27,747 nt of DNA from a virus (lineage: Duplodnaviria > Heunggongvirae > Uroviricota > Caudoviricetes): IMG/VR virus record IMGVR_UViG_2675903278_000003. The stretch is one strand, 5' to 3'. Numbering within the stretch: the stretch's first letter is position 1; each line of letters begins with the position of its first letter. Below the pieces are notes generated by a model that saw nothing but the letters and a program-made list of their open reading frames with translations, had not been told where the DNA came from and did no database searches. Below are positions 13,654 through 17,470 of the stretch, one piece after another. Both the position numbers and the translations under genes were made by a program.

Positions 13654-14240
13654 TTTTCCTCACATATGTCATATAGTAAAGGATTATATATACCGTTGTT
13701 TTGGACGCTCAAACAGCGAATCAGATCAAATAAAACGCACATTTGTTAACATTTACACAAAGTCTGCGTGGGATATTCTGAAAGAATATCCATAATGTGG
13801 AGAGAATCTATTGAAGTGCATGGTGCCGGGTGCCTCCCGGTGAACAAAATGTTCGTGATACCTGTCGGCGACAGAAAAGGTTAATGGTATCACCCCACCG
13901 CACAGGGGGATTCACCATGCAGGAGTTTTCTTAGCAAACTCACTGCGCGCCCGGCAACTCCCAACCACATAAAATGCGGAGTTTGTGGTATTTATGCATA
14001 TAACTCGCAGGAATTATCTTAAAAAACTGATGTCGATCCGGATTAAAAAGAAGCAGGTCATCATCAGATGACTGGAAAAAAGGAAAACAAAAAATACTCA
14101 TCATACAGTTTTGATTGCAGGGATGAGCCTGCTATGCACAATATGCAGAATATAAGCAAGATAAAAATATGCAGGCATATTATTTCGGATTTTGTTATTA
14201 ACACAACCTTTTTAATAATCATTTGGCATACAATAAACCA

Positions 14241-16126: not shown

Positions 16127-16399
16127 TTCTCAATCTCTCGATGGCGCAGTGCAGCAGATGCCAGTTGTTCAGGCTGACGTATAAAGTATAAATAAACTGG
16201 TTCCAGTGTAAAGCCCCCACCTTAATGGAATAAAAACCAAACAACAGATTGCTGGGATACAAACAACGCTTATTATTAAAAGCGGTTAAACAAATTAAAT
16301 TTTAATGTTATGCAAATTTGTCAGATCACCATAATATCTCATTTGAAAACCGCTGAAATAACAATCCTATCAGGATTAATCATATTAAGGTGAGTAAAT

Positions 16400-16486
16400 A
16401 TGGAAAACAACAAATCTGCACATTACGCTCCTTTTTTATCTGTAATACTTTTTGTTTTTTGCTGTGTATGGGCATTATTTTTATAA
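16400..16486 (+). CDS. Candidate small hydrophobic peptide (28 aa) MENNKSAHYAPFLSVILFVFCCVWALFL
   Basis: ATG at 16400 with SD 'AGGTGAG' 5 nt upstream; AT-rich region with a perfect palindrome 'AATCCTatcAGGATT' (16363-16377) in the putative leader; convergent with hok; not in the ORF track (shorter than 60 aa). Confidence 0.3.
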   Translation: MENNKSAHYAPFLSVILFVFCCVWALFL

Positions 16487-16594
16487 AAATATTCACAGAT
16501 AAAATAAACTCGCCGAATCAGGTTAAGTGTGGGTGCGTTGAGGATGCCTGACACATCAGAGGCGGCGAGGGATTTCTCCCTCGCCTAGTCACTC

Positions 16595-16750
16595 TTACTC
16601 CTCAGGTTCGTAAGCTGTGAAGACAGCGACCTCCGTCTGACCGGTTCGGATTCGCACCTCGCAGAGGTCTTTCCTCGTTACCAGTGCCGTCACTATGACG
16701 GTTAAACAGATGACAATCAGTGCGACTAACATCGCCTTTTGCTGCTTCAT
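16595..16750 (-). CDS. hok: Hok-family type I toxin (HokD/RelF-like), 51 aa
   Basis: MKQQKAMLVALIVICLTVIVTALVTRKDLCEVRIRTGQTEVAVFTAYEPEE is near-identical to my recollection of E. coli HokD/RelF; 3' hairpin 'ggcgagggatttctccctcgcc' (16564-16585) and a 9-bp-stem hairpin in the leader (about 16850-16890) fit hok mRNA architecture; the ORF-track start at 16807 is an in-frame upstream extension. Confidence 0.85.
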   Translation of the reverse strand: MKQQKAMLVALIVICLTVIVTALVTRKDLCEVRIRTGQTEVAVFTAYEPEE

Positions 16751-16961
16751 AGCCTGCTTCTCCTTGCCTTCCGGCGCGTAAGAGGCTAACCTACATGTGC
16801 AAAGCATGAAATTGGCCTCAGATTAATGTTAAGCGTCTTGCCGGACGCGTAATGTTATCTGGGGCTTTTCTCTATCTGCCTTTGGTGTTCATGCCTGAGG
16901 CAGATAGCCTCAAGCACCCGCAGCAATTCTACTTAACTCCCGTCACCTCGCCAATATAAAA

Positions 16962-17051
16962 TCAATCAGAAAGGCGATCCATAAGAACAACAGCAAGACA
17001 ATAAATTGCCATTACAGCCGCAATAGCTAGCGCACATTTGAGAACCAGCAC
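16962..17051 (-). CDS. Candidate small hydrophobic peptide (29 aa, GTG start) VLVLKCALAIAAVMAIYCLAVVLMDRLSD
   Basis: SD 'AGGAGG' 5 nt upstream of GTG at 17049-17051; single predicted TM helix with charged C-terminus; different frame from the 74-aa track ORF 16966-17190. Confidence 0.3.
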   Translation of the reverse strand: MLVLKCALAIAAVMAIYCLAVVLMDRLSD

Positions 17052-17470
17052 GACAACCTCCTGTATTGGACGTACACCAGTTCTGATAAATATGAGGCTG
17101 TCTCATCATTGATTCAATATAACTATTGGGTATAGTTTCTGTGATTTTGTTCTGTAGAAATGGAACACAACAACCAGTCACCACCAGCACTTCTTTAAAT
17201 ACGCCAAGTCCGACGCAAGCTAACCTTCTAGTCCGCTTTGAGCGAGGAGCGGACCAAACCCGGCCAACTGACTCTTAAAGGGGCCGCAGGAATTTTTCGT
17301 CTGAACTTTCGAAGCTCCTCTCCCTGAAGACAGAAAACTTCTGTGTGCTGTGGGAATATTGAATCTTTGCCTTAGATATAAATAATTTTATCCCGCCTGA
17401 AGTTTACATTATTTTATTTATCTGTTTTTCTAAATCAGACTGCACTCCTTACTTAAATCAGGAGCCAGTC

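Follow-up and report, generated by a model that had tools for sequence, protein, structure and literature searches.

Two short open reading frames (ORFs), here called ORF1 and ORF2, flank a hok toxin gene in a lambdoid (Rac/Qin-like) prophage of E. coli, represented by a stretch of 27,747 nucleotides (IMG/VR record IMGVR_UViG_2675903278_000003; hereafter, the window). We consider it likely, from comparison with related prophages, that both are genuine protein-coding genes for single-pass inner-membrane peptides, each forming a self-contained, moron-type gene of the Rac/Qin/DLP12-like lambdoid prophages of Escherichia and Shigella. At the level of sequence, what is established here is their conservation, the purifying selection on them, their conserved expression signals, and their modular distribution. 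ORF1 is new to annotation; the uncharacterised ORF2 has been annotated sporadically.

The original prediction, which was made from the letters of the window, gave the positions of both ORFs, their Shine-Dalgarno (SD) sequences, and the GTG start of ORF2, and all of these are present in the sequence and in the ORF list (Table 1). It also assigned a single membrane helix to each peptide, and we indeed found one 18-residue hydrophobic stretch per peptide, with a mean Kyte-Doolittle hydropathy of 2.61 for ORF1 and 2.74 for ORF2 (3.13 for HokD) and values of 2.5-2.7 in all variants tested. In ORF1 a polar N-terminus, MENNKSAHYA, is followed by an 18-residue hydrophobic C-terminal helix; in ORF2 the hydrophobic helix is at the N-terminus and is followed by a short acidic tail, MDRLSD. 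Hydropathy thus supports the proposal that both are membrane peptides. The AT-rich setting described for the pair applies to ORF1 (28-32% GC) and hardly to ORF2 (40-45% GC). Similarly, the description of both as unannotated held for ORF1 everywhere we looked and not for ORF2, which is annotated in a minority of genomes, for example as WP_000960667.1, a hypothetical protein called by PGAP in at least one RefSeq genome, and as ACT39199.1 in REL606. In a collection of 15 billion predicted proteins ORF2 is labelled "hypothetical protein" or "membrane protein", and it is without annotation in the RefSeq copies identical to the window. Neither peptide matched the family profiles of Pfam, NCBIfam, PHROGs, or PADLOC, with nothing below E = 0.04, and Pfam and NCBIfam at E <= 10 returned noise only (Sec20, E 0.36; Lp6.6, E 0.046). 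The searchable literature contained no mention of either peptide string.

Conservation of the reading frames

Codon-degenerate patterns were used to gather additional copies of both ORFs from IMG/VR, metagenomes, and species representatives. Because such patterns bias a sample toward intact frames, the scoring of each ORF was restricted to loci located by way of the other ORF or by simple DNA similarity. In these cross-ascertained loci ORF1 was intact and of the same length in 77 of 77 cases, and ORF2 was intact in 74 of 78. Reading-frame conservation in related prophages, which had been suggested as a check on the prediction, was therefore observed for both, together with an excess of changes at synonymous sites.

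Nine RefSeq loci spread over the identity range all keep the 28-codon frame of ORF1 with the same start and stop, and they fall into three clades: A, which is window-like; B, which includes CFT073; and C, which encodes MENNKFAHLAPFLSVILFACCFIWALFL. Over the 477-nt ORF1 region clade C has ~68% identity, with indels in the 5′ untranslated region (UTR) and none in the ORF, and its homology stops ~20 nt past the ORF1 stop codon. When 12 small ORFs in the two regions were followed through the aligned haplotypes, ORF1 was kept in 89/91 and ORF2 in 112/116, compared to 9-72% for the other ten. The two ORF1 "failures" apparently reflect gaps placed at or just past the stop codon; both peptides read intact. 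Overlapping ORFs of 53 aa (+), 38 aa (-), and 43 aa (-) at ORF1 and a 74-aa (-) ORF at ORF2 were discarded as candidates because they are not retained among haplotypes.

To estimate selection, we compared rates of synonymous (dS) and nonsynonymous (dN) substitution. ORF1 of the window differs from clade C by 7 synonymous and 7 nonsynonymous changes over 16.5 and 67.5 sites, respectively, which corresponds to a dS of 0.5-0.6, a dN of 0.11, and a ratio of ~0.2. In the unbiased set the ratio was 0.38 (P = 0.01), with the constraint located mostly in the PFLSVILF core and in W24-A25. For ORF2, 15 of the 28 variable sites in the unbiased set were third positions, and there were 17 synonymous and 14 nonsynonymous changes for 23 and 64 available sites (ratio 0.30, P = 0.0007); comparison of the window with the most divergent haplotype that has an intact frame yielded a dS of 0.45, a dN of 0.066, and a ratio of 0.15. 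Other reading frames had fewer synonymous changes and contained stop codons. The start codon of ORF2 swaps between GTG and ATG, the latter being present in one haplotype and on Shigella pINV. We conclude from these substitution patterns that ORF1 and ORF2 are under purifying selection, with a dN/dS of ~0.15-0.3 in the most divergent comparisons.

Three ORFs in the flanking non-coding DNA (1,019 nt) have 25 codons or more and a hydrophobic stretch of this kind: ORF1, a frame that overlaps ORF1, and ORF2. Composition-preserving shuffles of these 1,019 nt had a mean of 0.05 hydrophobic ORFs of this length, and the probability of finding at least two was 0.001. A hydrophobic ORF that also had a 5/6 match to an SD sequence appeared in only 0.15% of the shuffles.

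Expression signals and modular distribution

Each cassette would consist of its own promoter, SD sequence, and ORF, with a terminator after ORF1 in some loci. The -35 element of the putative ORF1 promoter is TATGCA or TATGAA in 90/91 haplotypes and the -10 element is TAATAT or TAACAT in 90/91; the 17-nt spacing is likewise kept in 90/91, despite divergence of the spacer sequence between clades. For ORF2, the -10 CATATT is present in 115/116 haplotypes, a -35 of TTGAAT or TTGAAG in 99/116, and the 17-nt spacer in 114/116. These ORF2 elements hold in clades with unrelated spacer and upstream DNA, and the -35, the -10, a conserved 5′ UTR motif (GTGTACGTC), the SD, and the ORF are the only parts common to clades whose upstream DNA is otherwise unrelated. 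With transcription starting at the proposed positions, the 5′ UTRs would be ~56 nt for ORF1 and ~31 nt for ORF2, the latter containing the conserved motif.

An imperfect inverted repeat overlaps the -35 element of ORF1. One half-site is identical in 87/91 haplotypes and the other in 90/91, the centre is 18 nt long in all 91, and the repeat may act as an operator or as an UP-like element. Elsewhere in the window the half-site CTTATTATTAAAA was no commoner than chance. A possible kinship of the promoter centre (GGTAAACAA) with phage immunity operators was dropped, because this sequence is not conserved in other clades. Just upstream of the promoter and the inverted repeat, at window 16260-16268, an identical copy of the locus (L346) carries a natural IS1 insertion. 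The strongest promoter-like site of the region, TTTACA-16-TATACT (10/12 matches, window 16185-16212 (-)), is directed toward the DUF1367 gene, divergently from the ORF1 promoter; clade C retains the hexamers despite a diverged spacer.

The original prediction had drawn attention to a perfect palindrome ahead of ORF1. The palindrome is present in the window, but this perfect form occurs in only 2/91 haplotypes; a co-varying form, AACCC..GGGTT, occurs in 13 and the others are mismatched. Within clade A the arms co-vary (AATCC/GGATT, AACCC/GGGTT), and clades B and C hold unrelated sequence at this position. Missing from two of the three clades, the palindrome was rejected as a conserved element.

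Downstream of ORF1 the window has a degenerate copy of a bidirectional terminator hairpin. At the matching position the hairpin of related loci, AAACCCGCCGAAGCGGGTT, is perfect, and the terminator scan of the window called none at 16506..16524. In the hok-less locus L005 a terminator with a 15-bp stem lies directly 3′ of ORF1. The same scan of the window found no terminator after ORF2 and none between the ORF2 stop codon and the hok transcription start. In B strains (L014 1287-1646 (-), Rosetta2/BL21) the 3′ end of a DUF977 gene is found in place of the ORF2 promoter, and judging from the position of ORF2 in L011, the DUF977 coding sequence of L014 would overlap the first ~40 nt of ORF2.

Table 1. 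Features of the ORF1-hok-ORF2 region (window coordinates; the strand cell is empty for features given without a strand)
Feature	Coordinates	Strand	Details
ORF1 coding sequence, MENNKSAHYAPFLSVILFVFCCVWALFL	16400..16486	+	28 codons, ATG to TAA; ORF listing
ORF2 coding sequence, (M)LVLKCALAIAAVMAIYCLAVVLMDRLSD	16962..17051	-	29 codons, GTG to TGA; ORF listing
ORF1 SD, AAGGTGAG	16387..16394	+	5 nt ahead of ATG; variants over 91 haplotypes TAAGGTGAG, TAAAGTGAG, TAAGGTGGT
Putative ORF1 sigma-70 promoter, TATGCA-17 nt-TAATAT	16309..16337	+	8/12 matches; -35 16309-16314, -10 16332-16337; start inferred at ~16344
Imperfect inverted repeat, CTTATTATTAAAA-18 nt-TTTTAATGTTATG	16269..16312		overlaps ORF1 -35; inverted-repeat scan
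Palindrome AATCCTATCAGGATT, in ORF1 5′ UTR	16363..16377	+	specific to one clade
Degenerate copy of bidirectional terminator hairpin	16506..16524		between ORF1 and 3′ end of hok mRNA
ORF2 SD, AGGAGG	17057..17062	-	5 nt ahead of GTG; GGAGG/GGAGA in nearly all of 116 haplotypes
Putative ORF2 sigma-70 promoter, TTGAAT-17 nt-CATATT	17089..17117	-	8/12 matches; -35 17117-17112, -10 17094-17089; start inferred at ~17082
hokD/mok/sok locus, between both ORFs	16595..16919	-	hok 16595-16750, mok up to 16807, mRNA leader up to ~16919; Rfam and PGAP
hok promoter, TTGGCG-17 nt-TAGAAT	16926..16954	-	promoter scan; conserved in alignments; -35 starts 7 nt past ORF2 stop codon
Conserved non-coding block upstream of ORF2	17120..17255		~135 nt, ends in hairpin GTCCGC..GCGGAC; border with variable cargo

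The ORF1 region is present in 1,188 of 5,426 complete E. coli genomes (~22%), at 74-100% identity and annotated in none, and the ORF2 region, at a coverage of at least 80%, in 1,717 of the 5,426 (~32%). We sampled 147 placements of ORF1, of which 87 have a convergent hok and 60 (41%) no adjoining hok, and 204 placements of ORF2, of which 174 have hok downstream and 30 (15%) have no hok. ORF1 is found with or without hok, ORF2, or rem, and ORF2 adjoins many different cargo genes. In Qin-type prophages, including that of K-12 (L010-L014, L017), rem (83 aa, minus strand) lies between hokD and DUF968/DUF1367, which is the slot of ORF1; rem and ORF1 are apparently alternative cassettes. Immediately upstream of the hok promoter, CFT073-type and clone D-type prophages have another small ORF in the place of ORF2 (L006 2237-2455 (-); between 47693 and 48302 in the CFT073 prophage, L343). 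This ORF encodes 59 aa from an ATG (72 from a GTG) with two hydrophobic stretches, has an AGGAGG SD, and is without annotation in both RefSeq records; its homologues, labelled "hypothetical protein", are in E. coli and Shigella only. ORF1 and ORF2 lie at the margin of a variable cargo region and are reassorted independently of hok and of one another. Because of this independence from hok, we do not regard them as parts of the hok/mok/sok mechanism.

The DNA on the far side of ORF2 varies by strain, containing IteS, AbiH, SIR2, DUF4145, TPR, DUF4209, a nucleoid-associated protein, QueH, or, in the window, an MFS block, which places the ORF2-hok-ORF1 segment next to what looks like a hotspot for cargo, defence, and moron genes. 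The non-coding block upstream of ORF2 is conserved in the main clade only, and homology to other prophages ends at ~17245-17255 (loci L002-L017). A plus-strand promoter-like site, TTGATT-16-TATAGT (17109-17136), is directed into this block.

The distribution of ORF2 extends to plasmids. A homologue, MLVLKGTLAIAAVMTIYCLIVVLMERFSD, on the Shigella virulence plasmid pINV is 79% identical, starts with ATG, and keeps the SD and the -10. It is on the same strand as icsP, ~290 bp upstream of it (L345 3902-4187, Shigella flexneri; AF386526.1 219920-220006), and it is present on 143 plasmids of Shigella and enteroinvasive E. coli, within the long icsP upstream region. Beside it are a decayed hok promoter and a remnant of the 5′ leader; hok itself is missing. 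Both ORFs also occur in sequenced phage genomes. A pattern scan of species representatives detected ORF1 only in Shigella flexneri and Escherichia ruysiae. ORF1 is carried by CFT073 (NC_004431.1 1338563-1338649 (-)), a strain for which a recent Ribo-seq study reports novel small membrane proteins in islands (10.64898/2026.09.28.754932).

Nature of the peptides and alternative explanations

The ORF1 helix runs to the C-terminus after a polar start, and the ORF2 helix precedes an acidic tail. Both peptides would be expected to insert into the membrane. Transcription from the proposed promoters would probably occur in the lysogen, because ORF1 points against the phage early and late operons. The peptides may then serve an accessory role at the membrane, by modulating a membrane protein, membrane integrity, or an incoming phage, and we think that such a role is likelier than that of a classical antisense-controlled type I toxin. 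The neighbouring genes differ from locus to locus, and a partner protein is therefore not evident.

Prophage morons are independent transcription units between phage operons (PMC3594210). ORF1 and ORF2 resemble them in having their own putative promoters, a terminator after ORF1 in some loci, and a variable presence among otherwise similar prophages; in addition, ORF1 is AT-rich and oriented against the phage operons, and both ORFs lie beside a variable cargo hotspot that includes defence genes. They are, however, much smaller than typical morons. A second point of comparison is the class of small membrane proteins that modulate larger ones, such as MgtS, AcrZ, and PmrR (reviewed in PMC12648545). 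With these, ORF1 and ORF2 share a length below 50 residues, a single predicted helix, a well-exposed SD, and a history of being missed by annotation pipelines, but they are located on mobile prophage DNA and not in the core genome.

The original prediction also raised the possibility of additional small toxins. In this case, one or both peptides would be membrane-depolarising type I toxins, restrained by an antisense or divergently encoded small RNA, and would form a toxin cluster with hok. At 28 and 29 aa with a hydrophobic helix, both have the size and hydrophobicity of the type I class (less than ~60 aa, transmembrane helix), and their position by hok fits as well. The very short E. coli type I toxins Ibs, ShoB, TisB, DinQ, and ZorO have 19-35 residues, nearly all within one hydrophobic helix, and ShoB and Ibs end within the helix, as ORF1 does. 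The antisense promoters that had been proposed as a check do have counterparts in the sequence, as promoter-like sites lie opposite ORF1 (16406..16379 and TTATCT-17-AATAAT at 16502..16474) and opposite ORF2 (16933..16962), but these are weak or not conserved. Of the ORF1 sites, the one at 16502..16474 reads TTATCA in clade C, where the scan flags it, and its -10 is lost in the L005 type. The -10 opposite ORF2 is destroyed in many haplotypes, where TAAAAT has become TGAAAT. Since the antisense -10 elements of ORF1 lie inside coding or AT-rich sequence, their conservation says little. ORF1 and hok are convergent with a common terminator region, so read-through would yield antisense RNA.

Several results argue against a toxin function. 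No toxin family hidden Markov model was matched, and Rfam identified no antitoxin RNA other than sok. The predicted ORF1 mRNA, with folds that rest on putative transcript ends, is less structured than shuffles (z of +1.8 and +1.6 in two clades, +0.24 in clade C) and has an unpaired SD, unlike known type I toxin mRNAs. An 11-bp helix between the 5′ UTR and the coding sequence that would enclose the ORF2 ribosome-binding site was rejected, because it is paired to 89.9% compared to 89.8% in shuffles, meaning that there is no covariation. Each ORF is single-copy, and direct repeats that could give pairing in trans are only 8-20 nt long and not conserved. One of these, a 20-nt direct repeat (85% identical) of the ORF1 start (16394-16413) located upstream of ORF2 (17154-17173), is probably due to chance, and the 12-codon ORF that it opens, MEHNNQSPPALL, is by eye not kept in other haplotypes. 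We also set aside a divergent small RNA that would run from 17109-17136 (+) to the hairpin at ~17231-17254: the block is conserved in the main clade only, and complementarity to the ORF2 mRNA amounts by eye to just the 8-nt shared GTGCTGGT, with none longer reported by the repeat scan.

The comparison with known toxin families is similarly mixed. Like Hok/Gef (hok/mok/sok; PF01848), small single-helix inner-membrane peptides of enterobacterial prophages and plasmids, ORF1 and ORF2 encode single-helix peptides on such DNA, with hokD between them. They nevertheless lack a match to the family model, a periplasmic Cys-containing domain, an overlapping mok-like frame, a sok-like RNA, and the fold-back 5′/3′ mRNA architecture, and they are about half the size. 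From Ibs, ShoB, TisB, DinQ, and ZorO they differ in having no Pfam or NCBIfam match at E <= 10, no conserved cis-antisense or divergent small RNA that we could find, predicted 5′ UTRs of ~31 (ORF2) and ~56 nt (ORF1), a weakly structured mRNA in the case of ORF1, and single-copy genes. Because neither a conserved antisense RNA nor an occluded ribosome site was found, the designation "type I toxin" is unproven, and we consider it unlikely to apply. A broader scheme, in which the ORFs would represent two new families of prophage membrane effectors (toxins or phage-exclusion peptides) and, together with hok, a recurring group of small membrane peptides that protects the cargo and defence hotspot of lambdoid prophages, seems to us quite unlikely. 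Such a scheme would allow for cross-talk at the RNA level, as ORF1 converges with the 3′ fold-back element of hok and transcription of ORF2 may continue into the hok promoter.

A more specific tie between ORF2 and hok can also be imagined. Read-through from the ORF2 promoter into the hok promoter, 43 nt downstream, could supply or modulate the hok/mok mRNA, or the peptide could modulate Hok in the membrane. Consistent with this, ORF2 lies directly upstream of hok in the same direction in 174/204 placements, the scan detected no terminator from the ORF2 stop to the hok transcription start, and CFT073-type prophages put another unannotated membrane ORF (59 aa) in the same slot. Yet 15% of the ORF2 placements have no hok, ORF2 is intact on pINV despite a truncated hok, and about half of the hokD-type loci in complete genomes are without ORF2. 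Such a tie is, in our estimation, improbable to a high degree.

The remaining alternative, also offered with the original prediction, is that the ORFs are chance occurrences in DNA that was conserved through recent prophage divergence or as a promoter, terminator, or other nucleic-acid signal. Hydrophobic ORFs arise readily from AT- and T-rich DNA, and most copies are at least 88% identical, so retention of the frame alone is weak evidence. Furthermore, there is little constraint on ORF1 outside its core, and the ORF2 region of pINV has a nucleotide identity of 79%, versus 78% in its flanks. However, the substitutions gather at synonymous sites of the ORF frame and not of other frames, overlapping and adjacent ORFs decay while ORF1 and ORF2 do not, and the SD, the start codon, and the stop position are kept in clades whose flanks are 54-69% identical or unrelated. 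Two such ORFs were also rare in shuffles (P = 0.001). Taken together, frame retention, dN/dS, the conserved SD and start codon, and the conserved promoters disfavour chance for both ORFs, and we regard this explanation as very unlikely.

Some observations do weigh against our preferred interpretation of two membrane-peptide genes. ORF1 has no protein call in any annotation that we looked at, nor among the 15 billion predicted proteins. Its codons outside PFLSVILF and W24-A25 have a ratio of 0.72, which is not significant, and four of the cross-ascertained ORF2 copies are exceptions, with three frameshifts and one C-terminal variant. With only 8/12 consensus matches each, the two promoters fall short of the 9/12 that the promoter scan required. 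The sequence set was partly gathered with codon-aware patterns; the cross-ascertained sets correct for this bias but are smaller. Finally, the P values are soft because they derive from small counts (7-17 synonymous changes) in short, closely related sequences, with many near-clonal loci.

If ORF1 and ORF2 are expressed in lysogens, they would be candidates for genes that mediate lysogenic conversion or phage exclusion or that encode toxins, and the prophages concerned, which include those of CFT073 and BL21, are very common. Annotation systematically overlooks small membrane proteins, and ORF1, with its region in ~22% of complete E. coli genomes and no protein call, is an example. Both ORFs adjoin the textbook toxin locus hok, around which the DNA had been regarded as non-coding, and they provide two precisely defined small-protein targets.

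The hok locus and the surrounding prophage

The gene between the two ORFs is a bona fide hok, as originally described. The Rfam sok/hok-leader model (RF01794) matches at 16745-16919 (-) with 116 bits, and PGAP annotates hokD in the identical RefSeq copies as the sole feature between DUF1367 and the MFS gene. Another copy (L347), otherwise identical, carries a natural IS903B insertion at window 16693-16701, inside hokD, which is thereby truncated.

Many RefSeq chromosomes match the 1.3-kb stretch around both ORFs with 100% identity. In minus-strand order, the replication genes are followed by a cargo block (MFS transporter, gamma-glutamylcyclotransferase, LysR, DUF2254, and BCCT transporter), ORF2, hokD/mok/sok, ORF1 on the opposite strand, the genes for DUF1367, DUF1364, and DUF1133 proteins, and the lysis genes. 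In strain HS30-1 (L001 16693-19341), ISApl1 and mcr-1.1 are inserted by the BCCT transporter gene of the cargo block in an otherwise identical prophage. Between the DUF1133 gene and the lysis genes, the window has a match to the STnc100 prophage small RNA family (RF02076; 86.6 bits, window 13764-13950 (-)).

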